Origin: an uncultured Planctomycetales bacterium
Lineage (GTDB): Bacteria > Omnitrophota > Gorgyraeia > Zapsychrales > JANLHA01
DNA: 64,000 bases
Assembly: GCA_964374105.1 (NCBI GenBank)
Contig: CAYJXI010000001.1
Location: 135,743-199,742 of the forward strand
Direction: 5' to 3'
The notes beneath the pieces were generated by a model. The model did no database searches. It was given only the letters and a program-made list of their open reading frames with translations, and had not been told where the DNA came from. Of this stretch, positions 30,001-54,000 are shown piece after piece. Numbering within the stretch: position 1 is the stretch's first letter; each line of letters starts with the position of its first letter. The translations under genes were made by a program, and so were the position numbers.

Positions 30001-33000
30001 GCTTGTTCTACACCCTGGCGGTTGGCGAGCTTAAGGGTTCCAATATGGAAGATTTTGATAAGAAGATCCTGCGCCGGATGGTTAATAAGGCCACCTGGGA
30101 TGAGGACGAAAACATGTACGACGCCTCAGTTTTAGGTAAGATCATTGAGGTGAATATTCCCGACTACAGTGATCGCTTCCGTATGATGAGGCGGAAATTC
30201 AATTCAGAAAATCAACTCTTTGATCCGAATACCTTTGCCATGCTGGCTGAGCCCTTCTTGACGGCCCTTTACGTCGCGGTCAAACGCGGCTATCGTGAAT
30301 TGCTTTCTATCGTGAATCCTCACGGCATTGAATTCGCACCTAGAGACATTATCTGGACCTTAGGTCCGCGTTATGAATTCCGGTTTATCCTCCTGGATTT
30401 CGAGACGTACTATAAACCGGATTTGACTTTAGAGACAGAGGATATTGAGAAATATCATTACTGGAGGCAGCGGTTGTCTTTATCTAAGGGAGAGGAGGGA
30501 CATCATCCTCAAGACCGCCACCCACCTGCCATGCAGCCGAAGTGGGAAGAGCGTTTTGAACGTGTGCAGACCGATAAACAAGGGGTGTACGATTATAAAA
30601 AACATAGGACGATGAGCCAAGAAGAGTGGTTCGTCACGGAGGTTGTCTCTCAACACGAAGAACGCGCCCGCGGATTCTGGTGGCGCGCCTCACCGGAAAA
30701 ATTCGTTCAAGATCACCCAAAAGTATTTTATCGCGCCCGCAACCGATGGGATACACCTACCCAAAAAGAACGTGCCATTCTTTTAGCCCTAGCTCAGAAA
30801 TCTGATCGTTTCTTCCATCGCGCCCGTAAGTTCGCGGTTTATAAAATGAAGCAAAATTTCTTCCATAAGCCGTTGATGCGAAGGTTGGTGCCGTTATTTT
30901 TGATCGGTCGAATGATTGATTTTGTGGTCAGTTTTGGAATTGCGTTTGATTCCCGCCAGTTCGCTTTAAGGGCGGCCGTTAATGTCCATAAGCGTTTTAA
31001 CCACCGGGTTTTCCAAAAGGGTGGTTTCTACGCAATGGCAGCCAAAAATGTGAAATATTCAATCTGGTCTAAACCCGTTAAAGAATTGTTCAATACCCAA
31101 TCTGGTATCGGTGACTCAGAAGCAAAAGGTAACAGTCACATTTTAGGAAGACAGACACTTGCCATGCAGCCGAAGTGGCGAGAGGCTTTTAAACAAATCA
31201 AGACGAAGGACCAAGCGGAAGAATTCTTATGGCAAACTGCTATTCAGGAAGAGACTGAACGTACTTTGGGTTTGAAACGTCTAGCATGGCAAGAATTTGT
31301 AGACAAACACACAGAGGTCTATGACGTGAAAACGGGTCACTGGCGTGAACCAACAAAACATGATCTCAGGGCGCTAGGCCGCCTAGCCCGTAAGATCAAT
31401 AAGATTTTTTATGAAGTCTTAAGCGATGCTCTTGTTTCCTTGTACGAAAATGTCCGAATAGATTATGAGGTCAACTATCCGCATATTGACAACGAAGAGC
31501 GTAAACGGCTTGTTGAGACTGAAGTCAAAGAAAAAGCACTCAAGGCTGCCCTGTATACCGCCATTGAGGAACATTACTTCTATAATCTCAATGTAATGCA
31601 AGCCGGCCAAGGCATCCTGGCGATGGTCAGTAGAGAAGGAGATAAGAATCGGAAAGATAAGAAAAAGATTCATAAAAAGGAAAAGAAAACTGAAAAGTTA
31701 ACGGCCAAAAAGGTACATGATCGCGCTTATGAAGCATTCGCTCAGTCTTTAGGCGAAGAAAGGTTTACTGAGCATAGCACGATCAGTGTTTTTAGTGAAA
31801 AAGGATGGATGGCAATATCCTTGAGCCTGGATGAATTAATTGATTGGTCCATCGCGACAACAGACGTTTTTTCCTCTGCCTTGGAAATCCTTGAGCCAAT
31901 CCTCGCTGAGGTTGGGAGCAAAAAGTCAGCCGAGGAGATTGTGGATTATTTTGTCGGATATTATGGAGAATATATAGCGAAGAAGGATGAACTCGATACG
32001 AAGGACGATTCCGCCTTGGAGCACGGGTTTAAAGATACCCTCCAGAAGAGACTTGGGCAGCCAGAAGAAGAAACTACGGAAGAAGTTGATGAATTAGATG
32101 ACATTGAAGACGATGATGATACTTATCCTTTCGCCATGCAGCCAAAGTGGCAACAAGCATTGAGCGAGGCCTTAAAAGCCGGGGATACCGAGCTGCTGGA
32201 ATTTCTAAGAGTGACCGCCCACCAAGAAGAAACATCCAGACACCGCGATACCCAGCCGGTCTCTGCCGAAGAATTTGCTAGATGGCATACCGAAGTCTTT
32301 GATGCTAATCTCATGGACTGGCGGCCGGCTCAGGAGGCGGATTACACGATCCTACTTGAACTCGGGTGGCAGACCGATACTATCTATTATCACACCTTCC
32401 AAGTAATTTATCGTTTCACCAGCGACATTGAGCGGGCGCATCATGTGGCCCTTAAGGTGGCCGCGGAAATTCATCTTCAACATAACCTGCATCAGTTTGA
32501 GGCAAGAGTTAACCCGAAAGAGCGGCCGCGCATTCTAGCTATTTCCGCAAGGGGTGTTGCCCATCAGTTTGTGGAGATTCCTCATCAGGTTTATGTGATT
32601 TCGGGTAACGCCTTGGTCGAGCAGAAAGGCCTTATCGATTTTGGAGTTGCCGAGGTTAGCCGTTATCCGAATGCGGTCGTAAAGAATGTTGCTGTTGAAA
32701 CAACCGGCGCTTTAATTCATGGCGGTACGATTTGGTGGGGTGTGAGGCCAGAGTTGAAAGATCGCCGCGATATCACCCTCGAATACCGCAAAGGCCAACC
32801 TTACCACGCTTGGGCCGGGGATCGGTATCCCACCAACTTCTTGCATCAGCCGGATAAGAATGTTCAAGAAATCACCGTTGAACCGGAACTGAGCAAGAAA
32901 GAAATTCTTTTGTGGGATAAAGGTGAATTGGTCTTGGCCTCCGGCCGCATGCGGCAGCAGCTTATATATTTCTCTATTTCTTATGGCGAAGAGCGGGCCT

Positions 33001-36000
33001 CCTTAGTTATTAGGCTTAAAGAGGAAGGTAGGGAATCTTTTAAGGTCAAGGCCTTTGTCATTCCCCAGGAATCTATCCCAGTTATCCGCCAGAAAGGGAT
33101 TCAGAGTTTAATCATGGCGACGTTTGCGGATGTCAATCACGGCCTGCTTTTAGGTTTATTTATTCCTGAGGAATACGTTAAATGGCTTCGTGGTGAAACG
33201 CCAGCTGTTCCGTTAGTCGTTTATGCCTATTCCAAGAAGCATAACTCCTCGCGGATCGCTGAACCGTTTATCTTGGATCTGCAGAAGATGATAAAGGGAG
33301 AGACGATTGAGCTAAGGCCTCAGGGAAGTCCTTGGTGGTACGGAAAGACAATTATGAATGTCTATCCTGATTCCCATAATCAGGCCATATTGCGCGGTCA
33401 TTTGAAATTTAGACTAGACGCCTTTGATCTTTTAGTCAATATGTCTGTCAAATTAGACCAGGAGTTTATTAAGAAATACGGCAGGGCCGACAAGTTTGAG
33501 GTCTACGCCGTTATCCAAAGGGATCCCAATCATGGTTTTGTGGTTACGGTTTATCACAAAGATGATTTTAATCCTGACAATCTTGAAAGTTCAAGGGATC
33601 CGTTGATGACCTATGCTTTGTTGGGAAGCAAATGGCGGCCGGTGGATTTGGCGGTGTTGGATATTATTGCCTTTAGTGAGGGGAGAAAAGACCTGGCGGC
33701 GACCGGCCGGAAAGTAAGGAGGAAAGCCTTTATCCTGAAAAATACTAAGTCAAGATTTTTAGGGAAAGGGATCGTGACGGTCAAGGCCGTTACGGATCAA
33801 AGATCCTTGGCCAAGACGGTGACCTTTGGTTTTACACCTGAGGAAGTCAGGCGCCATGATCTTGAGAATAATCCATTGATCTTTGAGTTAAAGGTTGATT
33901 CCGACTTTGGTTCCTACCTGAATATTTCTGTTGAAAGAAACGGTCAAGAAGAGTGGATGGCGACTTATTACTGGATCGCTGAGGCTAAACAGCAGCACCG
34001 GATGCGTGTTGATTTTAACCGGCTGGCCTTGATTGACCATGTTTCGGGGAAGCCCAATATTCACGGGCAGCCGGTTAAGCCGAGAGTCTACAGCCATGAC
34101 CTGCCTGTTCCTAACGGCGGATGGATTGTGCTGGGCGTCGGCCCCGAACGGCGGCTGAACGTTTATGGATTAGAACTGCTTAAAGGCAAGGTTCCGATAT
34201 TTATTCCTGAACCTCATGCGGAATACGGCTGGGTGTTCAACGTGCATGATGTTGAGGCCTACCTTAAGGATCGAAATCGCAAACCTGATGTTGTCTTGAT
34301 TAAGGACCGTAAGCGCCGGGACCCGAATGGATATGCCTTGGTTTTGAGGGAAGGATCCGGTATTGACTTGATTGACCCTCAGCGGGAGATTCCGATTACC
34401 AAGCGGGGATTAATAAAGCATTTTCATGATAAAGATGTTCGTGATCATTTCTTTGCCTTTAAAGAAATGATTGAGCAAAAGGCCGAGGGCAAAGATCTGG
34501 TTGTGATTGAAGGGATTCAGTTCTTGCAAAAACAGTATGTGGCAAGGGGGGCAAGGTATACGCAGTGGGTCTTTGCCCGAGGGGATATTGAGGCGGTGGC
34601 GCGGTTGACGGGCTGGCGGCTGAAGAGACAATCCGGCGGCAAAATCAAGGAGGACGAACAGGCGGAAGGCATGGCAAAAACTATCGGGCAGGCGAGTGTT
34701 GTGTACCAGATTTCCGGCAACCAACTCATCAAGGTGGGGGAGATGAACGCAGGGTTTGGGCCGGAAGAGGCAGCGAGTTATTCCGATGTTATTGTGAAGA
34801 ATGTCCGAACGGAGGTAACCGGTGCTCTTATCCACGGCGGCGTGATTTGGTGGGGGGCGATTGCAGATTTAAAAGACCGGCGTGATTTAACGGTTGAGTA
34901 CCGTGGCGGTCAACCCTTTCGCGCTTGGGCTGGCGATCGCTATCCCACCAACCGCCTGGATCAGCCGGATGAGGACATTGCCGCCATCATCATCCTTCCC
35001 GAATTGACACAGAGAGAGGTCATTTTATGGGATAGAAATCAATTACCCTTGGGATCCGGGCGCATGACGGAACGCGTGATTAAGTTTGAAGAAAGCCGCG
35101 GGGTCGAGCAGATCAATGTCAGATTCCACGATCGCGAAGTAGGGGTTAAGGTTCTGGTGATCCCTTATGAGTATGCGGTAAGAATTCGTGCACAGCGTAT
35201 CGAAAAGGCCGTTGTGGCTACCTTTGTTGATGAGTATTTAGGATTCTTTGTAGGAGTTTTTGTCCCCAATGATTATGAGAAATGGCTGAAAGGGGACGGC
35301 ACAGCCGCGCCTTTAAGTGTCTATGCGGTTGCGGGAAGACATCAGAGAGCAAGGATAGCTGATCCTTTTGTCATGGATATCCATAGACTGAGTACCGGTC
35401 GAGTGATTAAGGTGAGGCCTTCCGGCAGTCCTTGGCGGTACGGAAGATTTGCCTTGCGGCTGCAAAAAGATCATTCCGGAAAGAGCCAGTTATTTCTAGG
35501 ATCTATAAGACTTAGGTCATTGGCCTTTGATATTAATGTACGGATGTCATTTTCCATTAGCCCCGAAGAGGCCAAGAGACTTGGCATCAAAAATAAGGAT
35601 CAACTGTATGCGGTTATACAGGAGGACCCGAATCATGGTCCTATCGCCCAGATATATCGTTTAGAAGATTTTAATCCGAGCCAGCCGGAGAGTTCCCAAA
35701 ATCCGTTAAAAACGTATACCTTCTTTGGGGACAAGTGGATGGCCGTGGATTTAGCTGTGCTTGATATCCTGGCTTACGGCGAGGGAAGAAAGGACCTGAA
35801 AGCTTTAGGCCGGCAGGCCAGAAGAAATGTTGTCATCAAAAAGTCCGGGGATGAACGGACCGGTAGAGGGATAACGACCGTAGGGTTCTTCTTTTCAAAG
35901 CGAAAAGGTCAGAATGATGTTTTAGGTAATCGTGTGACCTTCGTATTCTCTCCGGCGGAGGTGAAACGGTTTAATTTAGAGAATAACCCGGTGATTTTAG

Positions 36001-39000
36001 AAGTGAAGGTCGATGATGATTTTGGCCCCTTTGTCGAGATCTCTGTGGAGAAGGATGGCAAGAGAAAAGTCATAGGAACGAATTATTGGATTGCCGAGGC
36101 CGTCAGGCAGCATAACATGCGTGTAAACTTAAACCGTTTGGCTTTAATTGATTTTGTTTTAGGCCGGACCAATATTCAGGGGTTGCCTATTAAACCTAGG
36201 CCGTATAGGCATTTTCGGCCTGTCATAGATGTTGGCCAGATTCAATTAAGGGCAGGGCCGAATCGTGCCATTTATATTTATGGGTTAAGAACATTACGCG
36301 GAAAGAAGCTGATATTTATTCCGAAGACAAGCCAGAAAATTCCCGGAAGGTTTTTTGCGGTCCATGATATCGAAGAATATAAAAAGAACAGGAAGCGTGA
36401 CCCTGACGTGATTCTGGTGAGGGATGCCTTGGCCAAGGCCCTGGTTCTGTTAGAGAGAAGAGAGGTGCAGTTTATTGATCCGCGCGAAGAGGTCATTGTG
36501 TCGAAACGGGGATTGGAGCCTTATTTTAATGCGAAGGCCGTCAAGGAAAGCGAGGTCTTATTAAGAAAGATTATTGCACAGGCGAAGGGAGAGGGTGAGG
36601 TTGTTATCGAAGGCATTCATTTTTATCAGAAAAGGAGACAACACCGCAGCAAGAAGGCGGTTATGGTCAAGTGGGTGTTCAAAAGGGCTGATATTCTCCG
36701 GGTGGCGGACATGATGGGCTGGGAGGTTAAGGGCAAGGTTATCGGCGCCTTCACACAGGAATTGAATGTTGATCGAAATATCGTGTATATCATTTTTGAA
36801 AATCAATTAATCAAACAAGAAGGTTCGTTTGCAGAGTTTGGTGCCCAGGAACTCCAAGGATATCCGAATGCGGTGGTGAAGAGCGTCTATACCGACACCC
36901 GCGGTGTGCTCATCCATGGGGGTGTTGTCTGGTGGGGCGCGAGACCAGATTTAAAGAACCGCCGCCATATTACCCTAGAATACCGGGAAGGGAAGCCGTA
37001 TCGGGCGTGGAACGGCGACCGTTATCCTACGGACCGGCTGGATCAGCCGGATGATCGTATTAAGTCGATTATCATCGAGCCCGAATTGACACCCCAGGAA
37101 ATTATCCTGTGGGATCAGGGGAAGATTGATTTGACGCCGGGCCGGATGATGGAGAAGGAGATTTCCTGGGTCAAATTTAAAGGAGAGGAAAAGGTCCAGC
37201 TGAGACTCCATGGCGGCAGCCTCGGAGAAAGGAATTTGATTGTTCCCGATGAACATCTGGCGAGGATGAGGCACGAGAAGATTGAGAGGATAGTTATCGC
37301 CACTTTTGCCGATGAGAATCTGGGATTGCTTTTAGGTCTTTTTGCTCCGGAAGATTATCGTCAATGGCTTAAAGGGGATCTGACGGTTGTGCCGCTCAGT
37401 GTCTATGCGTATTCTCAAAAGCGCAAATCTGCCCGGCTGGCTGAACCGTTTATTATGGATCTTTATCAGTTAAGTCAAGGGAAGCCCATTAAGGTTCGGC
37501 CGGACGGTAGTCCTTGGAAATATCGGAAGACCAAGGTCCATATTGTTATAAGCGATAGCCCCAAGAATCCCATGACTGTTTACTTAGATATGACGTTACG
37601 GAATTTTGATATCAAATCCATACGTTTGAGTATACCTCCCGAGAATATAAAGAAATTGAATGTTCATCGGGGAGACGAACTTATCGTGGCCATCATTGAG
37701 GACTTAAACCACGGTCCAGTGGCTTTAATTTACCGCGGCCAGGATTTTGATCCCGAGCATCCCGCATCATCAGCCAATCTGCTGTCGACTTATACCTTTG
37801 TTTATGGTAAATGGCGGACGGTTGATTTAGCGGTTCTGGATATTGTCGCCTTTACCGAAGGTCGGAAGGATCTTGTGGCTGCCGACCGACGGTTAATCAA
37901 AAAGGTTTTTATTTTTAAGGAAGGCAAAGGGGCTGTCCAGATCTATCTTTATGACAATAACAAGCGGATAAAAGATATCGTCTTTTCGTTTACGGCAGAA
38001 GATGTAAATCAATTTAATTTGAGGAACCAACCGGGTATTACTGAATTAAAGATAGATACGGATTACGGGCCTTACATTGAATTTTCTGTTGAGGAGGATG
38101 GGAAAACCATTGTGATTGGCACCAACATCTTCTTTGAAGAAGGCGAGAGGAGAATCGTCCGCATGGATTTAGACAAGCTGCGATTCATTGATTATATTTT
38201 AGGAAAAACAAATATTCATGGGCTTCCCATAAATCCGACGCTTTATCGTCATCCTTATGTTGTGCCTAAGGCAGGCGCAGTGAGTTTGCGCGAACGGGAG
38301 CAGACGGTCGTCATCCGCGACTTAAATTCGCTTATCGGCCGTCAAGTTATCTTTATCCCCGAGGTCCATCCTAAATACGGCTGGGTATTTAAGGTTCATG
38401 ACAGCCAGCAATACATCAAGAACCGTCTGCGTCACCCAGAGGCCATTTTAGTAAAAGCCCTTGAAGGAAATGCCTTGATCTCTCTTCAGAAACTGGAGGC
38501 TGATATCATCCATCCGGAAAGGGATGTGATAATCTCGCAGAAAGGATTGTCGGCTTATTACAGTAAAGCCGATACAGAAAATTTTGCAGCTCTCATCAAG
38601 AAGATCGAAGAAGCGGCGCAAGGAAAGACAGAAGTCACCCTAGAGGGTATCCCCTTTGTCAAGAAGCGATATGAGCATTATAAAGGACAAGGGTGGACTT
38701 TTGGCAAAGACGATATCTTCAATGTCGCTAAACTAATGGGCTGGAAGGTCAAGAAAGATATTATCCAAAAATCTTTAGAGGAAGAACTGCATAAGCTCTT
38801 TGAGGAGCAGGACCTTCTATTTTTGGCCAGTCGGTATTCCTTGGATATCAAGGACATCCTCTGGAAGCTGATCGGTTATCAGCTTAAGGGCCAATATGAT
38901 GAAAAGCAGATAGAATCTATTCTCAATCAGACGATTATTTCTATTATTAACCGTTATATCGAAACCAACGGCATTGATGAGGCCCTTAAGCACGCCCGGG

Positions 39001-42000
39001 AGCCGGAAGGAGAGATCGCCGCACCGCGGTTTTTAGAGGATGTTGATTTGTCGCAGGAAGATATTTCCAATATCGCCCGGCGCATGGATTACCGAATCAA
39101 ACGCCGGATTATTAATGAGGGTCTCAAAGGTATGGCGCGAAGCCAAGCGGTGGCGTTTATTAATAAGCTCGAGGAAAGGCATTTCTACAAGAATCATTTC
39201 AGTCCCCAGCCGGACCGCTTTACCTTGGAGAATGCCCGGCAGGCGGTTGAGGATACCCTGGCCCAAGAACAGGAGAGTATCGCCAAAGAAGCGCTGGCCC
39301 GGTTGCTGGAAGATGTCAAGGAGGCCTTGAGTCTGCAGTCCCAACTGCATGAAAAGGGCTTAAGCCGCAAAACCCATCTTAATCTTTATCAGCTGATGGC
39401 GGTCATGCGCATTGTTGAGAGAAGAAAGATTCTCTTATCCGATGAGATGGGCCTGGGCAAAACCTTGGAAACGATTGCCTCGTTTATCATATCCGATACT
39501 AAAGAGATGCTGGTTGTGGCGCCCAAGGCAGCTTTAAACCGTTGGATGGATGATCTGGCCAAACACACGGATATGGATATTGAACTGGTGAATCTGACCT
39601 ATGAACCGTTAGCGTTATCATTACAAGATAATGCCAGGATTAAAGTTGTGGAGATAGCGAAGGCTCGTAGCCGGTACAAATATCTTATGTCTCCACGTGC
39701 CCCACCCAAGAAAGGAAGAAGAGTTATCCTGATTAATTATCAAACCCTGCCGCGCCTGCAGAAGTTCAAGGAAAAAATAGGCCGCCACCAACCCATCACG
39801 ACAGAATTTGTTGCCCTGGATGAAGCCCACCTCATCAAACGCGCCAGCACCCGTACCGCCAAGGCTATTTTCGGTATCACGCAGATTCAGCAAGCCTTAC
39901 AGGCGGGCTATAAGGTCATGTTGACCGGGACTCCTCTTGAGAATGAACCTAAAGATTTATTTGTTTATTTGCGCTATCTGTCCCTCGGCGGCGATTCCCA
40001 TGCCGAGAAATTGTTCCAAAGCATATCGCAGAAGGAATTCGGCTTGATATTTAAGAAAACCGATATCGGCCGGCTGTCGATGCTTTCGGGATACTTGGCC
40101 GAGATGATGATACGACGCCTTAAAGATGATGTGGTTAAGGGCCTGCCGGAAAAACAATTCGTAAGGGTTAAGATTGAACCGTTGGCTAAGACGATGAATG
40201 TGGGGGGGCTCTTCAGCGTTGCCTTAGGCGGCGATTACCAAAAACAGATGGAACTCTATAACCTCGCCATGGACCGGCCGGATATCTTTGAGCATTATGT
40301 TGAGGAAGGGATATTCCAGAGGGAAGAGGAATTAAACGAGAATATGTTTGATGGTGATACCTCTGGTTTGTCTAAGGCCAGGACATCGCAGCTTTTGCGC
40401 CTGGAACAGACCGCGACTGATCCTTCGGTGTTTATCGAGAACGGGGTTATTGGAATCAAATTCGTTGCCGCGGCGCACCTGATTCAAGAACGGCTTAAAC
40501 AAGGAAGATTTATTCTAGTATTCACCGATTACAGAACAATTGCCGGGCATTTCCGTGACTATCTTCTTCGCCAGTTAGAGAAAGACACGAAATTCAGCCG
40601 CAATGACGTCGTTTATATCGATGGGACCATTACTGGACAGGCCCGTACACAACTCATGGCACGGTATCAGAAGGCTCAAGCCCATGTCATGATTGCCACC
40701 ACGGGCACCATGGGGGTCGCCAATGAACTGACCCAGACCGAAACAATTATCTTTTTGAACAATCCGTGGAAACCATCGAGTTTAGATCAGGCGATTGACC
40801 GGGCCCACCGTCTGGATCCCTTACGGAATTATCCTGGCAAGGTGTTAGAGATTATCCTTCTTGAATTAGATGTCGCGGTGTCGATAGATCATCTTAAAGG
40901 CATTGTCTTAAGAAGAAAGAGAATTTTATCCCGGATGATTGTTGACGGTGATCTTTCACCGGAGATCCTTAAGGCGTTTAAGGAAACAGATATCCGAAAG
41001 AGCATCATCCGCGAGATTGAAAAAGGTGACGTGGTTTCTCTCGATGAGCATGAGATGACGCTCTTACAGCAGTTCCGATTGCTTCTCTCGCAGGTTCTCC
41101 AAACCAAGGATCAGGCCGAAATGCGTGAGCTTTGGGATCAGGCCGCCCATATGTATCTTGAACTCTTGGAGCATAAAGGCTCCTTCTTTGCCAACATGGC
41201 TAACTTGGAGTATTTAAGTGATCCCAAGCACGGCGAATTAGAAAGACTCTTCCCGCAGGCCAAACAGCGGCCGCTGGTTGTGGTCGATTTAGGTTCAGGG
41301 CCTTCGACATTACAGCGGGCGTATGAACGCCTGAGCCAGCGCGAGAGCTTTAGGCAAAGAAGATTTACCCTGCGTATCAAGGATTACGATATCAGCCCCC
41401 GGATGCTGTCTTTGGGTATCCACCGTAAAGACGAGCAGATTGTCGGGACATTTGAAGATTTGGATAAGGCCTTTAAAGAGGAAAGCGTTGATATGGTCAA
41501 TATCTCTTTTGCCTATCGCTACATGTCTAATCCGGCTAAGGTCCTTAGGGCGGTACATAAGATTCTCATCGATAGTGGGATTTTAACTTTGATTTTGCCT
41601 AAGAGCAACAAGATTACAGAAGAATTTATCCAAGCCTTAGTTCAGCTTGGTTTTGTTATCAAGGTCGGCAAAGGCGCGAAACTACAGTCGCAGTTAGATC
41701 AGGAGACTTACAATAAACTCCGTCACGAGTTCGGCCAGGAATTTGCCAATGATCTGGCGGATGAGGTCAAGGGCGAGTTTACTTATCTGGTGGCCGGCAA
41801 GCAAGGGGTTCCTGCGCCAAATCTGTCCGTTGAAGAGTTGAATAAACAATTGGTATTGACCCGAAGAAAGCCGGTCGCGGTAAACAAAGAAAAGGTTAAG
41901 AAATTCATTTTTGATAAGGCCAAGACCATGATCCTGCCACCAGAAGGGGCTGTTGAAGGCAAAGTCGTTTATTACCAGGATTTGGTTAAGACAGAAATGA

Positions 42001-45000
42001 ATCAAGATATAGAGACGCAAGCAGGACAATCGGTGCCAGCCACCACCAATCATCTTTATCAAAAACTGGTTACGGCTATTAGCCGGATCTCGAAACTGGC
42101 CCATCGTTATCAGACATTAAATGCTATTGAACCGAGGTCCCTGCGAAAGAAAGAGGTTATCAATCAGAAGATTGAAAAGAAATTCGGTTTATTAAGACAG
42201 CAGATTTTAGAAGGGCTAAATATTCTGAAAGATGATGAAAGAAGGGATTTGTTAATTCGATTGGCTGCCTTAAAAGAACGCGACAGGGTTAGACAATGGT
42301 TTGAGGATTATCAGCCGCTTGTCGACTTGATGGATGTTGTTTCAGCCAGTACGACAGAGGAAAACGGTAAGGCATTGAGTGAGACAGAAGACGATAATAC
42401 CCGACCGGACGCTGATCCCAGCCCCTTCACTGGCATCCAGACACCTGGTCTTTTAGTGCGCTGGAAGGCTGAGTTTAAAGATATTCTTAAAAAGGGCGAT
42501 GAGAAGATTATCGAATATTTAAAAGAGCGCTCCTATGACGAGGAAGTCATGCGGCGTGTTTCGAGGCAGCCTGTGACACCGACCGAATTTGTGAAATGGC
42601 ACGCCCGTGTTTATGATGTCGCCAAAGGGAAATGGCGAAGACCGACTGTGGGGGATTTGTCTTATCTTTTCAGTCTGGCTAAGGAAACAGATCAGGCTTA
42701 TGAACATGGTAGGAACGAATTTTTTGAAACATATCTTTTTTCACCGATTATCGACATTGATCGAGAAAAGGTGTTGATGCAAGCCAACGAGGCCGGAATC
42801 CGGGCTGCTGCCCAAGTGCACTTTGATTACAACCAGCGTATCTTTAAATCCGGCCAAGGTATCCTGGCCATGAACCAAGATGGTTCATGGCTGGCGATGG
42901 CGGGGAAGAAAAAAGATAAAAAATATCGTAAGCAAAGACAACAAGATTTTCCTCACACATCTTCTTCAAAGGACCAATCCTTAGCTAATATTCAAAGCCA
43001 GTCACAGTCTCAACAATTTTCCACTTATCGACTGAGTGGAGGAGCAATCCTTTTAACCCGACTACTTCCAGAACAAATTCAAACTTTGGATAAGTATCCA
43101 GCCGTTGTCTATGAGGATAAGACAGGTCGTTTAAGAGTGAGACAACCCGTAAGAAGATACTTCATAGATGGAACTCCTTTAAGCAAGATTAATGAAATAC
43201 TAAGCACGCGTCTTGTAGAAACAATTACGGCCCTTGCTCAAAGATTCTCAAAACGAGTGGTTGTGGTTCTTGATTGGGGTGTGGGCAATGGAGTCGCATT
43301 ATCTCAGATAGCTGAGCAGCTTTTTCAGAATCTGACTAACGTACGATTAATAGGATATGCAAATCAGTATCTACCGGAGTGGCAATCTTATGATGAGCGA
43401 GTCACATTCGTTTTAGATGTCCTGGAAAAATTACCGATTTATTTCAATCCGGGAGAAATTGATATTATTTACAGTTCTTTTGGATTAGAGCAATTAAGAC
43501 CAAAGGCGCTTTCTGATCACCTTGTACAGTTAGCTCCACTCTTACATCCGGAAGGTGAGATTCGGATGACTAATCCTGGTCAACGTACCAGACGATATTT
43601 GGAACAACTACAAATTTACTTTACTATCGAGGGTGGTGAAAATGATTTAAAACAGCCACGCATTTCACCACTTGCACTCGTTTGGGCCCACGCGGTTCGC
43701 TTCACACTTAAGCAAAAACAACAAGAAGGTGACGGGCACTTGAAAGAGGGACAGGAAATGCAAGATAATACTCCGCCTGCCATGCAACCAAAGTGGCTCA
43801 TTAGGTTTAAATTTAACCGTGCCTTAAAACGCGCCGAGATTTCTCGGTTCCTTCAAGAAGCCGCATACAAAGAAGAAGCCAAGCGGACGGTCGGTTTTGA
43901 ACGTGCTCCACCGGAGAAATTCGTCAAAGCCCACAAACATGTCTACGATGTAAGAACAAGCAAATGGCGCAAACCCACCCAAGATGAAAAAGCACAACTT
44001 CTTGAACTGGCCCATCAAACAGACCAAACCTATCGAGAGGCCTTTGAAAAGGTTCTTCATGAAGCAAAACAAATGATCTTAACCGCGAGCACATTTAACC
44101 TTGGTTTCGAGATGTTCGCTAAGACCAGAGAAGTTGCGCGTGAAATCGGCATCGCCGCGGCGGCGAAGGTCCACTTTGACTACAACAACACTGTATTTAT
44201 GGCCCAGGAAGGCATCCTGGCCATGAACCAAGATGGTTCATGGCTGGCGATGGCGGAAGACCAACCTAAATACATAGAAGGTCAATTTTCTTTAGATCAA
44301 TGGAGTAGAGTGATGATTAACGGCAAAGAAAAAGACAGAGCGAGGGGATTGCGAAAGATGCGTTTGATTAATCTCCAAGATATAAGTCAGGAGGACTTCC
44401 TTTCCATTATCGCGGGATTAGTATCAACTATCACATCAAGGGCTGGCAAATCGAGAAACCGTATTGTTGCCGTTCGGTGGCTGAATAAGGTAATGGATAA
44501 TCTCGATTTCGCAAAATTTTCCTCTGAATTGAGAAAAAACATTGAAGGCTGGATCAATCTTTTGGGGGATGAACTGGAGCGTTATGGGCCGGTATCTTAT
44601 TATGTCCGAGGCGAGCTTGTTATTATTTTTGAGAAATACGGCACGATTTTAAGTGAAGAGTCTCAAGCGGTTTTATTCCACGTCATTTATCAGGCGATGT
44701 TAAAAGAACCACATCACCGAATACAGGAAAGAGAACTTTCAACGTTAATAACCTTGGTCCGCGGAACACCAAGGATTGGATTTCGATTTATGAACTCGGA
44801 TTTTGAGATATGGGTAGAAATGACAAGATCCGAGCTAATCGCGATATTATTCGGTCTAAATATTTTAGGCGAGGATAATCATTTCAGGCTTTTTGCGGCC
44901 TGGCTTTTGAGTTTTAGACAGGGCGATGATATTGCTCAAAAAGTAGCACTGTCAACTTTACCGTTGGCAAAAGAGGCTTTAAGTGACACAGATGAAAGAG

Positions 45001-48000
45001 GTCGATGGATAGCAAAAGAATTATTAAAAACTTATGAGGAGATGAAAGACATAGATTCGATTTCCCATATTCCACCCGCCCTGCAGCCGCACTGGCGGCA
45101 GGAATTCGATAAGCATCTAAAAATCGGGAATATTTTACAAATAATTGACTTGGCGGCTAATGTAGAAGAATGGAATCGCTCGCAGAATTTAACCCGCGGC
45201 CCGCCAAAAGAGTTTGTCCGGCCGCATGAGATGGTTTATTACGCAGACCGTGGCGTCTGGAACAAACTGACCTTCGGCGCCATCAGAGCGCTATTTAGAT
45301 TAGCCTATCAAACCGACAAAGCCTATTGGCAAGCCCGCAACGAATTCCTCAGTTACGCTAAAATTATTCTGAATCGTTCTACCGAAGATAAATTCGATCA
45401 AGAATCTGACCACCTCATTCTCGAAATCGCACATCGTCTCGGCGTTGAGGCCGCGATCGTTGTTCATCGGAATTATAATTTAGAGGTTCTGATAAAAAGT
45501 CAAGGCATCCTGGCCACCACGGCTTCGGAAGACGAAGCCAAGCGCGGTGGCTCCGGCAGCTCTGGTTCACATCGTGAACCAGCGGGAGCGATGGCGCAGA
45601 AGGATAAGAAGCGAACTCGGGATAAACGCTTTTCAGATGATACGCGAATCATCCAGTGGCGTCAGCGTCTAACTGAATCTGAAATTCTTGCTGTTAGTCA
45701 TCGATACAGTTCCTTTGAAAATAAAGGTAAAGGAGATGGACTCACGCCTGAGGGTGTTAACTATGTTAAGTTAGATCCAGAAGGAAGCTCCTTATTTCAT
45801 CTTGACTATTACTTGGAACGCATCAAAGCTAGATTTGGTGAAAAACTTGCTGCCAACAGAGAATCCTCGCTGGAAGTCTTGATGCTGGGGCCTGGGTATT
45901 TCTGGCAGGCAATTGTGGCGATGATCAAGGTGTTCCCACAAATTAGAGTTATCCATTTAGTGGAGCGTGATGCCAAAGCGCTAGAAGCTCTTGATCGCAA
46001 ATTGTCTGAGTATTCGGCTGTTGAAACCATGCCGGATCTTTTAGCTTATCAGATCAATCTGCTTGAATTGCCAGCGAAACTTACCAACCGTATCCATTTG
46101 GTGTTTGATGCAGAGCTTTTTGATCCAAATCATTTTTCACCAGGACATATCTTGCAGGCGCAAAAAGAATTAGTGAGGGTGCTAAAGCCAGGAGGGCTTC
46201 AGATCAGCTGGGACGTGCAACGCATGCCCGCTTATCATGACACGTTGCCTGTCGAATCAATGTTTGATTTGATGGCCAACCTTCATTTACGGCAACCAGA
46301 AATGGAAAAAGGTGACAGTCATCTTGGGGATGAGGATAAAAGAGACCATCCCCCCGCCATGCAGCCGCGCTGGGCGACGGAATTTGATACGACACTGAAA
46401 GAAGGCCGAGGATTAGCATTCGTTGAGGAAGTGGCTTACCGTGAAGAGATGGAAAGAACGACCCAGTGGATACGCGCCCCACCGAAAGATTTTATAAATA
46501 ACCACAAGGTCAAAGGTGTAGTGAGAGTCTACGATACCGCCCTTCACTATTGGCGAGGTGCCACCCGCTGGGACATTGGCCAGCTTCATATGTTGGCCTA
46601 TCTGACCGATGCCGAATATTATCTGGCCTTTTTGGAGGCGTTAAAGTCTAGAGAGAATGTTGAGTCCGCCCGCCGGGCCGGGATCAAGGTGGCCGCAGAA
46701 AGACATGCGCAATTCAATAGGGATGCCTTCTTAGCCAAGAAAGGCATCTTGGCGATGGCCGATTCATTTAAGCGAAGCTCGCTTAAGAGGCGCAAGGCGA
46801 TGGCCAATAACGGGCGCTTATCCAAAACTCATCAACTTCAGATTGATAGTGCAAAGTATCGAGATGATCTGGATTCCCTGCAAGCGAAGGTTGACTTATC
46901 TCTATCTCAAGGTCAAGAGGTTATGCTAAAAGTGGGCACGAAACGTTACCTTCTCCTTAAGTCTATAGGAAAGGCAATCTACACTGTGCAAAGAAGGAAT
47001 CCCAATGGGACCTTGGAGCGAAAATCGGTGCTGAGGCTTATCACTTCTTATCACGATGGCTTTGATATGGATCATCTGACTTATTATTATCAACGGATAC
47101 AGCCTAAAATCAAAAAAGATCCTCATCTTATCAATCCGTTTGTGGAAATCCTGTATCTCAATAAGAGATTGAAGATTTATGAGATGGAATGGGTGGAAGG
47201 GCAGCCGGCTTCTTTCCTTGATGACAGGATTCAACAATTGAATATTATCCTTCGATTGATGAAAACATTGGCTTACATTCATAAGCAGTATAAGGTCTTT
47301 ATGGGTGATGTGAATATGGCGGGGAATGTCTTTGTGACACCTTCAGGAACCATTAAACTGATCGATTTTGGAGAAATGCGTTTGTATCTTGGACGAAAGC
47401 AGAACATAGAAAGAATACATACCGCTAAGAAATTTTATGAGATTTTAAGCATCGCTGAAGATATTTATAAATTAATTTTTGGAAGATCTCCGAGAATTGA
47501 TCAGCATTTGATAACAGTGCTGTTTAACGAAGGCGAGATAGAGCCACGTCATTACCTATATCTTAGTTATGATGAGATCGAAAAAAAGACATTGAGCAAA
47601 GGAGAAAAACTGATCTTGAATGCTCTTCGTAAGGCGATCTTTGCCCAAGGGACATATTATAAATCCATGGAGGCATTTTATGATGATCTGGTTAATACCT
47701 TGGGTAACAGGGATCAAGAAAAATATGGGAGTCACGATCGGCAACACCCTCCTGCCATGCAATCCTTATGGCGTAAGGGATTTGAAGAGGCGGTGAAATA
47801 TCAAGAGGTGCAGGAATTCTTAGAAGAGGTGGCTTATCATGAGAAAGCCAATCGATCTGAAACCTTTGAACGGGCACCCCCCAGAGAATTTGTCGCTGGT
47901 CATCTTAAGGAAGTTTATGATGTGGCTTTACGCATTTGGCGCAAACCTACCCTTTCCGAATTGAAGACTCTTTATCGGCTGGCGAGGGAAACCGATAAAG

Positions 48001-51000
48001 CCTATGAAAGAACCTATCAAAGACATTACAATGAATTCCTTTCTTTAGTGCATTTCTTTAGGCCGTTGCTTAATGTGTTAGGGGTTGAAAAACGTACTCG
48101 TGAGCAAGCGATGAACATAGCCCGAGCCTTTGGTATCAGGGCGGCAACCAAGGTGCATGCGGCTTACAACGCCAAAGTCTTCGCAGCCAAGCAAGGCTTT
48201 TTGGCGATGGCTTACCAGAATGAAGAAGACAAAGTAATAAGGTTCACAAATATCTCAGAGGAGAATCTCACCCAAGGAAACGAAAATTCAAAAGCGACCT
48301 ACGCTGTCACCCTCAAGCAGATTGATGCTCACACCTGGATCGCCCAAAGCAGAAAAGGAATTTATCGATATCAACTAACGCCAATGTCATTGTCCGATTT
48401 AATACGATTGAAAAAACAAATCATCGAGTCTGCGAAGAATGGTGAAAGCATATCAGATCTCGCCAGCTATATCGATTCGCTCATAAACTTCAATTGGAAA
48501 AAGACCAGTGTGATTGTAGGGTTGTTCCTCAATGATCGGATCGTTGGTTTCTATGAATTTGATAAAGCCACCAATTACCTAGGCTTTATTATTGTTCATC
48601 ATCGATTTAGAGGGACAGGCGCTGTGGATATCCTTCTTGAAGACTTGGAAAGGAGAATATTTAACGGAGATAAAAAAGTAAAGTTGAATGCCTCCATTAT
48701 TCGTTTCTCTTTAAGAGCCGATGAGACCTTCGAAAGCGGCACGATCATGGAATTTAAGAAAGCGTTAGGGGTCTTGAGTGAGGTCACCCTATCCGTAAAA
48801 GATGAAAGTCAGCTTCCAGTGGGACAGCCGACAGCGATGTTACCTCGCTTCCGGAAACGATTAAAGCAAGCGATTGAAGGAGGGACACTCAAGGAATTCT
48901 TAAAAGAGGTGGCTTATTGGGAAGAGTCCAAGCGGAGAAATTATCCGGCCTCAGTGAGTCCGATTGAGTTTGTGCGCTGGCATAAACGAATTTTTGATGT
49001 TTCCACTGGCAAATGGCGAAAGCCAGATGAAAGCGACAAATTCCATCTTTTGAAATTAGCGCTTCAGGCGGATAGAGCCTATGAAAGGGCCATGATCAAG
49101 TTCTATGAAAAATACAAGGGGAATATCGACAAATCTCTTTGGGAAAGACCACTGTGGAGAATTTCTGCAGAGAAGATGAAGACCACTTTATTGATCTTGG
49201 CCGGAATGGCCCATGAGGAAGGACTTAAAGCCGCCAGTAGAGTCCATACTCAATATAATCTTCGTATTATGAAATCAAGAATAGGCATCCTGGCGATGGC
49301 GAATGGAGAGGATAAGAAGAAAAACTCTAAACCTTCGTTTGGCTTTTCTTATCCTGTGACATTGATCCAGATGGATTCTGTCACTTGGATGGTGGAAAGT
49401 AAAAAAGGTCGATATCTATTGAAGGTCTTAGGTTCAATTCATGATGGTATAGTTACCGTCCGTTTGATTTACAAAGGCGAATATGTCGGTTACTACGAAA
49501 TTAATTCTCACGATTTTTTTATAAAACATGTTCGTGTTGATGAACAATTCCAAGGGACAGGAGCATTTGATGTTCTTCTGGAGGATATGTTGATCAGAGT
49601 CTTACACGATGATCCCATAAGAGAGGTCCAAGCGATTATCATGCGGGACTCAGAAAGAACGGACCGGACCTTTAGGCGGGGAACATTGGCCGAATTTAAA
49701 CGAGCTTTAGGGGTTCTCAGTAAAGTCAAGGTTAAAAGGAAAGGTGACAACCACCTTAAAATGATGATGAAGAAATATAGGCTCAAATTGAAGACATCCG
49801 TTGCTCAAGAACATAAAGTGAATGATCCCGAACTTCCTGGCCTGCTTCCTATCTGGAAAGGGGAATTTGAACAACACAAAAAACAAGGACGAATTTTGGA
49901 ATTCTTGGCGATGGCGGTCTATTATGAAGAAAGCAAACGATCGATCAATCAAACCCGGGCGCCGTCCAAAGAGTTTGTGAAGGCGCATCGGCGTGTTTAT
50001 GATGTCACAAAAGGCAAATGGCGGAGGCCAAACTTCAGTGACAAAAAATCCCTCTTTAAACTCGCTAAATTAACCGACCAAGCTTATTGGCTAGCCTATG
50101 ATCAATTTTTAAAACGTGCTAAGACTTTTATTGATATTGCCAGTGATTTTGGAAATATTGCAGAAGTTGAAAAAGAAGCCAAAAATTTTGCCCATCGGCA
50201 AGGGGTTGAGGCGGCAACAAAGGTGCATCTTGAATACAATCTTAATATTTTAACATCGGGTGTAGGAATCTTTGCTCTGGAAGACGAACAACATTTGATT
50301 CATGGTTCCCAATGGGATGGATTCAAAGGAGTCATTTTTGATCTCGATGGTGTCATTGTTGACACAGGACATCTTCACAGACGTGCCTGGGAATTAACTT
50401 TGGATAGGCCCGTGGATGAGGTGATGGCCAAACGATATTTCCGCGGCAAGAGTGCTTTGGAGGCGGTAAGGGCCCTGATTGAGGCAGACCTGTTAACCGG
50501 GCTCGATGAATCTTCCATCCGGTATCTCAGCCATAAAAAAGTATCGATCTTTAATGATCTTTTCAGGACAGAAGGTGTTCAACCCTATGCGGGTAGCGTG
50601 AAATTCATTAATGAATTAAGACATGAGAATATTGTTCTGGGGGTTGGTTCTTCCAGTCCTATTGCCGAGGAAATCTTAAAGAGCATTGGATTAAGAGATT
50701 ATTTTAAGGCGGTTGTGGGAGGACGCGGCATCACCCAAGGCAAACCCCATCCGATGATCTTTCATCTGACAGCGGAAAAGATGGGATTGAATCCCGAAGA
50801 TATCGTGGTCGTGGGGGACTCTGTCCCGGATGTGCAGGCCGCGGTTCAAGGAGGATTTGGATTTACCATTGGGATCATTCGCGATGGGGAAGACAATAAT
50901 TATCAAGCGCTCCTTGAGGCCGGGAGTGATTTGGTTGTCAATGACTTAAAAGATATCAGTGTTGATCAAGTCAACAGACTCTTTATTGATAAGAGAAAGA

Positions 51001-54000
51001 GGATTGACATTATTAAAAATCAGAAAGAAGAAGATGACAGCCGTCTTGAAGTCTCAACGATAACTCTATTATTCAGGGATGTTGAGCAAATATTGAATTC
51101 GGGTCTGGATTACGAAGCCAGATTGCAGACCTTACGGCAGTACCATGACCGGCTTTTGGCTCAATCCATCCTGGATGTAAAGCAAAATCTGGATGCGCCG
51201 GTCGAAAAATTTGAGCATGAGATCCTGATGGCCGTTATCCGGCTGGCAGAAGAAAAAATCGGAAGATTCCCTGGCCGTTACGCCGTAACGATTGTGGGCA
51301 CCAAGACCACCCCATTTGCTGATTTAGATGTTTTGATTTTTGCCAACAGAAACAGACCCAAATATTTTAAGAAATTCATAGCGGAGATCCGAGCATCCGC
51401 AGAAAAGGTGGGATTGGTTATTGACCCTGTTCCGTTTAGGGTCATTCCAATAAGAAGGTTGAAGAAATATTACCAATACTTTGATGAGCGGGCTTTGTTT
51501 GTCGATATGGTTATCCGCTGGAATGTGGATTTTGTGGCACTCACACATCTTATGTCCATGCAGTTTATCGGTGGAGCAGAAAAATTCTACCAACGGGTTC
51601 AAAGAAAGGTGAGATCAAAGATTTACCGGTTAAGGCCTAAGAAAATCCATTTGATTGCCGAAGAGCATCTTACCCCGATATTCGGATACGAGGATAACAA
51701 GCGTTTCCACATCAAAGATGCCATGCACAATATCCACGACATTATCTTTTTCTATCGCCTGGTTTATGGCCATCGTGAACACAGGCTTAGGGAAGCCCAT
51801 AATGGCATGGACACACTAGAAGTGCTTAAAGACTTAAGTTTGATCTTGTTGGAGGAATACCAAATCCTGAAAGAGTTTTATGCATTGTTGATCCATCTGT
51901 TTAGGATTATTCAATTGAAGCACCAAAAAATTGTCGATGTCCTTGAGCCAACGGATTTTGCTCTGGTTGCGGCAGGTCTGGGATTAAGCGAATCTCAATT
52001 GAAGGATCAATTGGTTTTTTATAGTCTGGCCTTGGAGAAGAGCCGTAAATTCATTCAAGAAAATGTTTCCTTCTTGATTTCTGGTGAGCAAAGCAAAAAA
52101 GGTGGCAGTCACATTGACAAAGAACATAAGGAAGATGAAAAGAAACAAGGTTACTTTGGTAATCTTACCTTAAAGGATATTGATGCAATCGAAAAGGCTG
52201 TTGAATACCGTTTGTTTAAGATCATTCCACAATTCTTAGGGAAGCCGAAGTCCCAGGACACAAAGTTCTATGTTTTCGAGATCCCCGCTCAATATTTTTT
52301 AGAAAATTATCCCAAAAAACTCTTTATCTGGGCCCGCCTGCCAATGAGAGCAAAGGGCGGGCAGGCCAGGAGAAATCAAAGGGATGAGTTAGAGATCTTC
52401 TTCTCCTGCTCTCAATTCCTAAAACAGTTTGAAGAGAAGGTGGCCGGTCAATTAGCATTAGCCCTTGAGGCTGTTGCCTTGCATGAAACTTTAGAGCTCA
52501 GTTACCGAGAATTCTATCAATGGGATGATGCGCATCGAATGGCAGTTGGGTTTATGAAACAACAAAGTAGATTTGTGAAGATGATGGGACTCTTAGAAGA
52601 ATTATTTGCCGAGGTCACCGAACCCAAAGAATCTTTAGCCATGGGAACACATGAGGCTCAGGAATCCCGCGATCTAAGCCAACTCACCCTTAAACAACAA
52701 AGAGGTAGAAAATCAAAGATTGAAATAAGATTAGAAGACAAGGAAATGCTTGAGAAGATCAAGGGTAAAAATATGACCGAGGCCGCTTGGATCTTGGATG
52801 TCTCAGTGGCGGGCTTAAGGCTCTATTTAAAGAGAAATCCAGGGAAAGAGCAGGAACTAGGACTCCATAAGCAACGCGGAAAGAAGCCCAGACACCAGCC
52901 AGCCCCCATCGTTATTCAGAAAAAAGAATTGAGGGTAGAAGAATTATATCCTCTTATTTCCTCCTCACTGAAGTTCAATATTAATAAAGAAGAATATTCT
53001 AGGGCATTGAGATTGGTTGAGGAAATTCTTCTTCTGCCGGTTGAGAAGATTATGGTGGTTGAAGACGGACTCGAGTATCTAGCGGTCATGTTGACCTTAC
53101 TGGGCAAAGACGTTACCTATGTAGCCGAAACAAAGGTGGAAGCAGAGAATATGGTGATGTATATGCAGATCTTCCAAGACCGGGCGTTAGAAAAGGGATG
53201 GGATTTAAGTCTTAAATTTACGGCGATTGGGGGTGTCCAGCAAACCCCGTATGGTTTGGATATGTCTCCCGATGTCAATGATCTGGACATCGAAGCGGAA
53301 TTGGAGAGCTTCTTAGATATTAAGAGAACTCTGACCTTAGATTTACAGAAAGTCAATTTAGGCCTGGGGACGTTTGATTTTATCACCTTTGTAGATTTCA
53401 TGAGCCAGGGTATCCGACGTCCTTACAAGACTTGGCTTAAAGGTGCTAAGAGACATTTAAAAGAAGAGGGCTTTATCCTCATTGACGAATATAAACCCGG
53501 CCGGGATCAACAAGCCATGATTGATGATTTTAAAGTCATCTTCCCCCACCGCCAATTACTCACGAAGGAATCTTTCTTAGGGAGGGATGAGAAATCCAAA
53601 GCAAACCGATTTTACCGCATCACCCAGAATTCGCAAGGAAGATCACCGAAAGGCCAAGGTTATTTCGGCAATTTGCATAAAGACCATATCAGCGAAATCA
53701 AAGCCATCGTTAAGGCTGGAAAGAAAATCAATGTCATTCCAAAATTCAATAGACTCTTGCGCGCCATCGAAGGCGTGCCGGTTTTGTTCTTTGTCTTAAC
53801 CGAAAACATTGCCCGTGCGCCACCGGAAGGCTTTATTTGGGCACGGTATCATTTGGGTGTTATCCAAATATTTTTCTCTTTTGATTTAGTCGGACGATTC
53901 CATGATCGACTCCAAAACAATCTCAGCCAGGCTTTAGAGATTGTGGCCGTCCACGAATATCAGGAGATTATCCTCAAAAAATCCCATGAAGAGACAGACA

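Follow-up and report, generated by a model that had tools for sequence, protein, structure and literature searches.

What is a chromatin-remodeller-type motor doing in the interior of an enormous bacterial protein, and is the methyltransferase that follows it a DNA methylase? The question is raised by a 64,000-nucleotide stretch of DNA from an uncultured Omnitrophota bacterium (contig CAYJXI010000001.1, forward-strand positions 135,743 to 199,742; hereafter the window, in whose coordinates all positions are given), which is occupied by one open reading frame (ORF) of 21,332 codons. A reading made from the sequence alone had singled out positions 39366 to 46225 as a DNA-directed block, composed of a SNF2 helicase, an S-adenosylmethionine (SAM)-dependent methyltransferase (MTase) and two further MTase-like folds, and had likened it to the Dar proteins of phage P1. 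Our analysis suggests a different partition. The SNF2 ATPase and the first MTase (MT1) probably constitute a DNA-tracking Snf2 motor joined to an MTase of a non-DNA type, a portable unit that resides inside a giant gene of the Archaeovorin type. The parts of the motor and of MT1 are as follows.

39417..40172, + strand: SNF2 ATPase lobe 1 (Pfam SNF2-rel_dom, E 5.2e-27, 95.1 bits against a cut-off of 24.9)
39450-39464, 39819-39830 and 39924-39944, + strand: lobe 1 motifs I (GLGKT), II (DEAH) and III (TGTPLEN), with a MIRRLKDD block from 40107
40479..40814, + strand: SNF2 lobe 2, Helicase_C (Pfam E 4e-10, 40.4 bits against a cut-off of 23.5)
from 40512, from 40695 and 40788-40811, + strand: lobe 2 motifs IV, V and VI (QAIDRAHR)
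41262..41645, + strand: MT1, class-I SAM-dependent MTase, type-11/UbiE-like (Methyltransf_11, 30.6 bits, cut-off 21.2; Ubie_methyltran, 22.7 bits, cut-off 20.1)
41280-41306, 41382-41390 and 41499-41522, + strand: MT1 motif I (VVDLGSGPS), acidic DYD and NISFAYRY

By both profile and motif content, the motor is confirmed as an intact ATPase of the Snf2 family (SF2). The four strings by which it had first been recognised, GLGKT, DEAH, TGTPLEN and QAIDRAHR, each occur exactly once, and far from being degenerate, the ATPase motifs are conserved in all eight full-length family members described below, both arginines of motif VI included. Motif V is divergent (TGTMG). In a PDB sequence search, the best solved relative of the region is the Sulfolobus Rad54-like protein 1z63 (E 2e-21). 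Snf2 motors act on double-stranded DNA.

MT1, too, is what it had been taken for: its two Pfam scores exceed the curated cut-offs, and the string VVDLGSGPS occurs once. It follows the SNF2 domain in the order claimed, at a distance from QAIDRAHR of 469 nt rather than about 400 nt. The more difficult question is what it methylates. A classification into N6A, C5 and N4C enzymes, which the sequence-only reading had left as a next step, places MT1 in no class of DNA methylase. The (D/N/S)PP(Y/F/W) motif has no match in residues 12898-15460 or in the whole 21,332-aa ORF, relaxed patterns included, and neither the PCQ (PC[QK]) nor the ENV motif of C5 methylases is found in the region or the whole ORF, both of whose cysteines, moreover, fall outside the SNF2-MT region. 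Among Pfam profiles, N6_Mtase, N6_N4_Mtase, MethyltransfD12 and Eco57I give no match in one scan at E <= 0.01 or in a second at E <= 1, and the C5 profile DNA_methylase gives none in either. P1 DarB, which served as the positive control for these scans, returned both N6_Mtase and Eco57I.

What MT1 does match are other Pfam families of the same fold (Methyltransf_31/23, UbiE/COQ5), the NCBIfam models MenG/UbiE (weakly) and BioC, and PDB profiles of type-11 MTases, Coq5, calmodulin-lysine MTase, sterol MTase and cap N7 MTase (best E 5e-4); a PDB sequence search with MT1 alone gave nothing significant. Every one of these family and PDB profile matches is a class-I enzyme of the small-molecule, protein or RNA type, and none is a DNA methylase. 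After strand 4, where motif IV would sit, MT1 has NISFAYRY, whose ISFAYR resembles ISFGLRN, which we take to be the corresponding motif of UbiE. By profile, MT1 is thus confirmed as a general class-I MTase of the type-11/UbiE-like kind, and it has no DNA-methylase signature. Lacking the signatures of a DNA base methylase, it is less likely to act on a DNA base than on protein, RNA or a small molecule.

These properties bear directly on the idea that the block is a helicase-methylase like DarB, which would mask or methylate DNA as an anti-restriction or foreign-DNA effector, with the two downstream folds (MT2 and MT3) as part of the same block. P1 DarB is an anti-restriction helicase-methylase that is packaged in the capsid. 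The general resemblance is genuine: both are large proteins that join an MTase to a SNF2-related/Helicase_C motor, action on double-stranded DNA is expected of such motors, and the lineage is predatory, with a proposed transfer of molecules into prey (PMC13153191). In our scan, however, DarB has N6_Mtase and Eco57I at its N terminus, followed by a partial SNF2-rel_dom and by Helicase_C, and carries NVPF as motif IV, whereas the MTase of the window is C-terminal and of type 11, so that the family differs and the domain order is reversed. Similarity in BLASTP is confined to the neighbourhood of Walker A (E 0.002), an amino-MTase or C5 motif occurs nowhere in the ORF, and MT2 and MT3, which are related neither to MT1 nor to one another, lie within a generic enzyme array. 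Nor is the link to phages and conjugative elements borne out. IMG/VR contains no relative of the unit, and tblastn matches in phages and plasmids cover only query residues ~150-770, the Snf2 core, at ~24% identity, stopping before MT1 in every case. Of the analogy to P1 Dar proteins, then, the architecture of a motor joined to an MTase survives and the homology, MTase family and domain order do not; we regard a DarB-like function as improbable, and the finding gives no support for a new restriction or anti-restriction system.

If the motor and MT1 are not half of a phage-type system, are they a unit at all? Comparison with relatives suggests that they are, and that the unit extends beyond the two recognised domains on both sides.

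38736..42386 (approximate), + strand: conserved SNF2-MT unit, ~1,200 aa, delimited by homology to relatives, whose ORFs include stand-alone genes
38736..39416, + strand: N-terminal region of the unit, ~225 aa, helical, with invariant RY..D...I.W and LEE motifs
41646..42386, + strand: C-terminal tail of the unit, an FTYLV strand and then a predicted coiled-coil-like helical stretch ending in VRQWF (from the alignment)

The N-terminal region has no relative that we could find in Pfam or the PDB, and the tail has no Pfam match. A search of 5.8e9 proteins with the SNF2-MT1 stretch returned just three close relatives, at 37-45% identity and 84-96% coverage, each with the SNF2 / Helicase_C / Methyltransf_11 architecture; the next matches are generic Snf2 proteins at E ~1e-22. 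The GTDB representatives added one more member, from an Omnitrophota metagenome-assembled genome (MAG), and the JGI metagenomes another four. The eight relatives (seven full-length and one fragment) have been seen only in Omnitrophota MAGs and in metagenomes, two of their records being labelled Omnitrophica/Omnitrophota, and the full-length ones are 33-44% identical to the window over ~1,160 aa. Their ORFs differ greatly in size.

1,167 aa, 1,345 aa and 1,547 aa: three complete genes
2,106 aa: open frame inside a contig
2,448 aa: complete ORF
at least 1,549 aa: begins at a contig edge
at least 5,735 aa (L008): extends past the fetched locus
at least 612 aa (L009): fragment cut by a contig end

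Across eight full-length members aligned at 33-44% identity, 158 columns are invariant. In the motor, Walker A, DExH, TGTPxEN, the MIRR block and the two arginines of motif VI are among them, as are DYD and N-x-S-x-A-x-R in the MTase. The retention of such motifs in both halves at this level of divergence indicates purifying selection on both. Homology shared between the loci is confined to window positions ~38736-42386. A conserved gene neighbourhood was considered and rejected, as the flanking genes of the relatives are mutually unrelated and the unit is the only element common to the loci. The unit occurs in ORFs as short as 1,167 aa and as long as 5,735 aa or more, and its neighbours there are unrelated. 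It thus behaves as a self-contained machine of two enzymes, with fusion into larger proteins on more than one occasion.

In one locus (L001) the unit gene (10001-13504) begins 28 nt after the stop codon of a gene of >3,300 aa (44-9973) and is followed by ilvBNC/leuA. The product of the upstream gene has an intein splicing domain and matches a type-11/25 methyltransferase strongly. The alignment to the window starts right after the upstream stop codon, so that the two genes may recently have been split or fused.

The Snf2 protein could also be an anti-phage defence component of the ZorD, DrmD or DpdE kind. The PADLOC models of all three match the SNF2 core (E 1e-29 to 1e-15), and the top named NCBIfam match is ZorD. 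The scores, however, are those of generic Snf2 proteins, 67.8 bits for the NCBIfam ZorD model against a cut-off of 1500, and no nuclease domain was found. The window, being a single ORF, holds no partner genes, and at two loci of relatives (L003, L005) nine flanking ORFs or ORF extensions were compared with the PADLOC models and not one matched. A role in defence is therefore very improbable.

How does the unit sit in the window? The frame that contains it is open from one end of the window to the other.

3..63998, + strand: giant ORF of an Archaeovorin-type multi-enzyme protein, delimited by stop count and Pfam domain map

This frame (frame 3) has no stop in its 21,332 codons and is open at both ends; the other five frames have 872-1693 stops each, and the ORF listing shows none of 150 aa or more in any other frame within the flagged stretch. 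The window is thus an internal piece of one giant gene. In order, Pfam finds GT4, Bac_transf and a pyridoxal-phosphate enzyme (PALP) at 4.5-7.5 kb, then HEAT repeats and an M23 peptidase (~17420-17730, 31.7 bits against a cut-off of 28.7), SNF2/Helicase_C and the methyltransferases at 39.4-43.6 kb and an ABC1-like kinase at ~47.1 kb; GNAT, HAD, histidine phosphatase (His_Phos_1) and PPDK_N domains are also present. A hydrophobicity scan finds about six strong transmembrane (TM)-like segments, among them those at residues 2576, 6720, 6883, 7680 and 20709, and none between residues 7,680 and 20,709. The M23 domain and these segments agree with the earlier description, in which the block is a single cassette of a membrane-associated megaprotein and a cell-wall hydrolase is part of the same chain. 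Judged by the strong hydrophobic segments alone, the M23 peptidase would share one side of the membrane with the cassettes that depend on ATP and SAM, an arrangement that is difficult to explain.

For separate expression of the unit from within the gene, predicted internal promoters and terminators showed no enrichment over shuffled sequence, and no Shine-Dalgarno-like sequence precedes the ATG at 38736. The window contains no Rfam family and no DNA tandem repeat in the searches made. Its cumulative GC skew climbs monotonically from end to end.

A giant, internally repetitive gene could also be an artefact of assembly or gene calling, and its domains decayed relics. The non-canonical motif I of MT1, degenerate in one relative, would fit such decay, as would the weak profile scores of MT2 and MT3, which are orphans. 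Set against this are 64 kb without a stop codon, the purifying selection indicated by the ATPase motifs and the other invariant columns, and the state of the internal repeats, which have diverged to 27-53% identity instead of being identical and are not accompanied by tandem repeats at the DNA level. We thus consider a relic or artefact highly improbable.

A further property of the ORF may bear on where it works. Only two cysteines occur in its 21,332 residues (codons at 52407 and 57549), against an expectation of ~190 for a frequency of 0.9% (Poisson P ~1e-79). The depletion is shared by six of the eight relatives of the unit, which hold 0-2 cysteines.

P0001, P0002, the L007 ORF and L009: 0 cysteines
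L008 ORF (at least 5,735 aa): 1 cysteine
L006: 2 cysteines
P0003 and the L005 ORF: 0.8-1.0% cysteine, normal
most flanking genes of the relatives: 0.2-3% cysteine
117 generic Snf2 matches: mean 0.94% cysteine
other large proteins with the spacer module described below (>2,000 aa; the spurious P0134 excluded): 0.7-1.7% cysteine

Proteins that leave the cell unfolded, or that function outside the cytoplasm, typically avoid cysteine. Its near-total lack here is a hint of export, or of transfer of the polypeptide into another cell.

Taking these properties together, how might the unit act? From what is known of the family, the Snf2 motor would hydrolyse ATP and hold and track double-stranded DNA or a DNA-protein complex. 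Its movement would position the covalently attached MTase on a DNA-associated target, and the MTase would use SAM to methylate a target associated with the tracked DNA. The dependence of the array on ATP, SAM and acetyl-CoA implies that the whole of it works in a cytoplasm, which may be the producer's own or that of a prey cell.

Several points weigh against this proposal of a DNA-tracking motor with a non-DNA-type MTase. First, the tracking of DNA by this unit is inferred from its membership of the Snf2 family. Second, a type-11 fold does not reveal the substrate, and an unconventional DNA or RNA target is possible. Third, motif I of MT1 is atypical: the third glycine is replaced by serine (DLGSGPS), most relatives have DLASGPS and P0003 has DLCSATS, so that some members may bind SAM poorly or no longer bind it; the acidic DYD does not vary across the family. 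Fourth, the hydrophobicity scan leaves either side of the membrane open for the SNF2-MT block. Finally, the normal cysteine content of P0003 and L005 means that the hint of export is not universal. We nevertheless consider the proposal probable on balance.

The choice of cytoplasm distinguishes two further possibilities. In the producer, the unit could be a housekeeping or regulatory remodeller like RapA, acting on the nucleoid or on transcription while tethered to the megaprotein, with the MTase modifying a component associated with the nucleoid or RNA polymerase. The producer's cytoplasm supplies ATP and SAM, the unit is an ordinary gene in relatives, with no secretion-related Pfam domain recorded, one locus has it beside the housekeeping genes ilvBNC/leuA, and two relatives have normal cysteine content. 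A core housekeeping protein would not be expected to be so sparsely distributed, with eight relatives in 5.8e9 proteins, the GTDB representatives and the JGI metagenomes, or to recur inside very large multi-enzyme ORFs, and cytoplasmic enzymes do not usually lack cysteine altogether, as most members do. No RapA/HepA family and no RapA-specific N- or C-terminal domain is among the Pfam or NCBIfam matches. We regard a RapA-like role as possible, though doubtful.

Alternatively, the cytoplasm could be that of the prey. The predator V. archaeovorus has been suggested to transfer molecules into its prey (PMC13153191), and together with the depletion of cysteine this is suggestive of the prey cytoplasm. 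A cysteine-free array of effectors might then be threaded or handed from a predatory Omnitrophota cell into its prey, in a manner analogous to that of the MARTX toxins. Once inside, the unit would draw on the ATP and SAM of the prey to move along its nucleoid, or along its chromatin in the case of an archaeon, and by methylating a target bound to the DNA would contribute to disabling the prey. Those relatives in which the unit stands alone and lacks cysteine would send this effector as a separate protein, and the 145-aa helical modules that recur in the giant ORF would be spacers, or points of processing or docking, between effectors. This idea we think unlikely, and somewhat more so than a remodeller.

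What, then, of the rest of the block? Downstream of the unit, the ORF is divided by copies of the 145-aa helical spacer module, of which there are 11 in all, four at 28.5-32.6 kb and seven at 42.5-50.3 kb.

28512-28967, 30588-31058, 31182-31646 and 32154-32564, + strand: spacer copies 1-4
42468..42887, + strand: spacer copy 5
42888..43805, + strand: MT2 cassette, probable MTase (Pfam stretch 43266-43556; motif I VLDWGVGNG at 43266-43292)
43806..44240, + strand: spacer copy 6, the copy used for modelling
44241..45098, + strand: cassette with no Pfam or NCBIfam match and no homologue in the 5.8e9-protein search
45099..45539, + strand: spacer copy 7
45540..46376, + strand: MT3 cassette, tentatively MTase-like (VLMLGPG at 45876-45896, HLVERD at 45954-45971, LKPGG at 46182-46196)
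46377..46778, + strand: spacer copy 8
46779..47774, + strand: atypical kinase-like cassette, ABC1/UbiB-like (ABC1, 23.7 bits, cut-off 22.9), with LIDFGEM at 47358-47378
47775-48230, 48855-49319 and 49860-50294, + strand: spacer copies 9-11
48231-48854, + strand: GNAT cassette
49320-49859, + strand: second GNAT-like cassette, a diverged paralogue of the first (phmmer E ~1e-17)

The seven downstream spacers thus bracket, in order, MT2, the cassette of no family, MT3, the kinase-like cassette, GNAT, its paralogue and HAD. The claim of two further MTase-like folds holds unequally for its two subjects. MT2 is probably a class-I MTase, falling just below curated thresholds when scanned alone (Methyltransf_25, 24.5 bits, cut-off 27; Methyltransf_11, 21.0 bits, cut-off 21.2) at E 4e-5; it also matches NCBIfam CpaM (E 4.5e-4) and has a canonical motif I (DWGVGNG). 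MT3 can be called class-I MTase-like only tentatively: the class-I motif order is present, its best Pfam match is Methyltransf_25 at 15.4 bits (E 0.032), and a single-sequence AlphaFold model was uninformative (predicted local distance difference test score (pLDDT) 37.7, predicted template modelling score (pTM) 0.28). PDB sequence searches with MT2 and with MT3 gave nothing significant, and a word-indexed search of 5.8e9 proteins gave no homologue of the MT2-MT3 stretch.

By sequence comparison, MT1, MT2 and MT3 are not paralogues. Aligned by hhalign to the MT1 family profile, MT2 and MT3 give no signal (probabilities 0.2-1.9%), and MT2 and MT3 align with each other in BLASTP only at the start of the spacer module that follows each. 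They do not therefore belong to a DNA-directed block with the motor, as had been proposed, but are separate, unrelated cassettes bounded by spacers, in series with kinase-like, GNAT and HAD cassettes.

The kinase-like cassette, which sits just past the interval first flagged and also has weak Pkinase and NCBIfam UbiB matches, lies ~1,600 aa downstream of the unit. In L008, an ABC1/UbiB-like kinase (~15800-16540, E 1e-20) lies ~1,550 aa downstream of the unit, and the sequence between is not alignable; the match in the window is weak. A UbiE-like MT1 and a UbiB-like kinase bring together two families linked to quinone biosynthesis, which may be a coincidence.

The spacers themselves are 27-42% identical to the modelled copy, share invariant F, H, W, L, L, A, H, N and A, and are followed in several cases by Lys-rich linkers. 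AlphaFold models the spacer family with a pLDDT of 91.9, and no structural relative was found in the PDB. The module is rare: the word-indexed search of 5.8e9 proteins found nothing, and an exhaustive HMMER scan of 1.84e9 representatives found it in only 19 proteins, mostly of 2-6 kaa and often in several copies. The copy at 30588-31058 alone contains a hydrophobic insertion (LVPLFLIGRMIDFVVSFGI) at 30885-30941 and could be a membrane-inserting variant.

Self-BLAST of the ORF in overlapping chunks mapped other internal repeats.

32589-34667, 34701-36782 and 36783-38792, + strand: tandem repeats R1, R2 and R3, each ~690 aa, 40-53% identical, directly upstream of the unit
~23112-23621, 27036-27614, 54837-55268, 56394-56897, 57705-58319 and 61383-61844: second repeated module, ~170 aa, at least six copies

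The ~690-aa repeats have no relative in Pfam or the PDB; the final ~50 aa of each also precede the unit in L006 (E 1.7e-6). Two further paralogous pairs occur within the ORF, at 27723-28493 and 56991-57752 and at 11703-12110 and 17826-18197.

How do these features compare with known systems? Among Snf2 ATPases, of which the closest solved example is SSO1653 of Sulfolobus solfataricus (PDB 1z63, Rad54-like), the unit shares motifs I-VI, the TGTPLEN and MIRR blocks and the two lobes. It is only about 24-27% identical to any Snf2 protein outside its family, adds a unique N-terminal region and a C-terminal class-I MTase, and lacks the SNF2_assoc and SWIM domains of its nearest bacterial SNF2/SWIM-type matches. 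To the type-11/UbiE-COQ5-like MTases (e.g. PDB 3bkw, 1xxl YcgJ and 4obw Coq5), MT1 is similar in motif order and in the ISFAYR-like motif after strand 4, but is very distant (best PDB E 5e-4) and has DL[GA]SGPS as motif I; fusion to a DNA motor is not known for this group. The analogy to MARTX multi-effector toxins is functional and drawn from general knowledge. Both are very large chains of unrelated, cofactor-dependent enzyme cassettes, and both come from organisms that attack other cells; RTX repeats and a cysteine-protease processing domain were not detected in the window by the Pfam scans.

The closest known system is that of the Archaeovorin-type giant proteins of Omnitrophota, whose repertoire includes HEAT, glycosyltransferase (GT), HAD_2, PPDK_N, methylase and GNAT domains (West-Roberts et al., bioRxiv 10.1101/2023.11.21.568195; bioRxiv 10.64898/2026.06.07.730766), and for which a class of long proteins termed the 'multi-enzyme metabolic cluster' has been described (10.64898/2026.06.07.730766). 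The only helicase discussed in the two preprints is a divergent SecA DEAD domain, and no SecA-like domain was found by Pfam within the 64-kb window. The word SNF2 and any mention of cysteine are absent from both, and we found no description in either of the unit, its stand-alone homologues or the 145-aa spacer; the top-ranked literature matches for SNF2-methyltransferase fusions included nothing relevant. The window ORF and the Archaeovorin type are alike in being enormous single ORFs with TM segments and HEAT, GT, PPDK_N, HAD, GNAT and PF08241 MTase domains, and the homologues of the unit likewise come from Omnitrophota MAGs. By its single giant frame, its predicted TM regions and its domain repertoire, the window ORF, known as a partial gene, matches this type.

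The comparison also indicates what the locus contributes. Giant Omnitrophota genes are already known, and the family of Snf2/type-11 MTase fusions is previously undescribed; we found no characterised example of a chromatin-remodeller-type motor joined to a non-DNA-type MTase, and here it occurs in a lineage known to kill other cells. At ~1,200 aa, the unit is small enough to be expressed and assayed, and the clear cassette boundaries, marked by a confidently modelled spacer, together with the near absence of cysteine, offer handles on processing, export and delivery. Finally, the existence of the unit as an independent gene in relatives is direct evidence that megaproteins of this kind grow by fusing self-contained enzymes.

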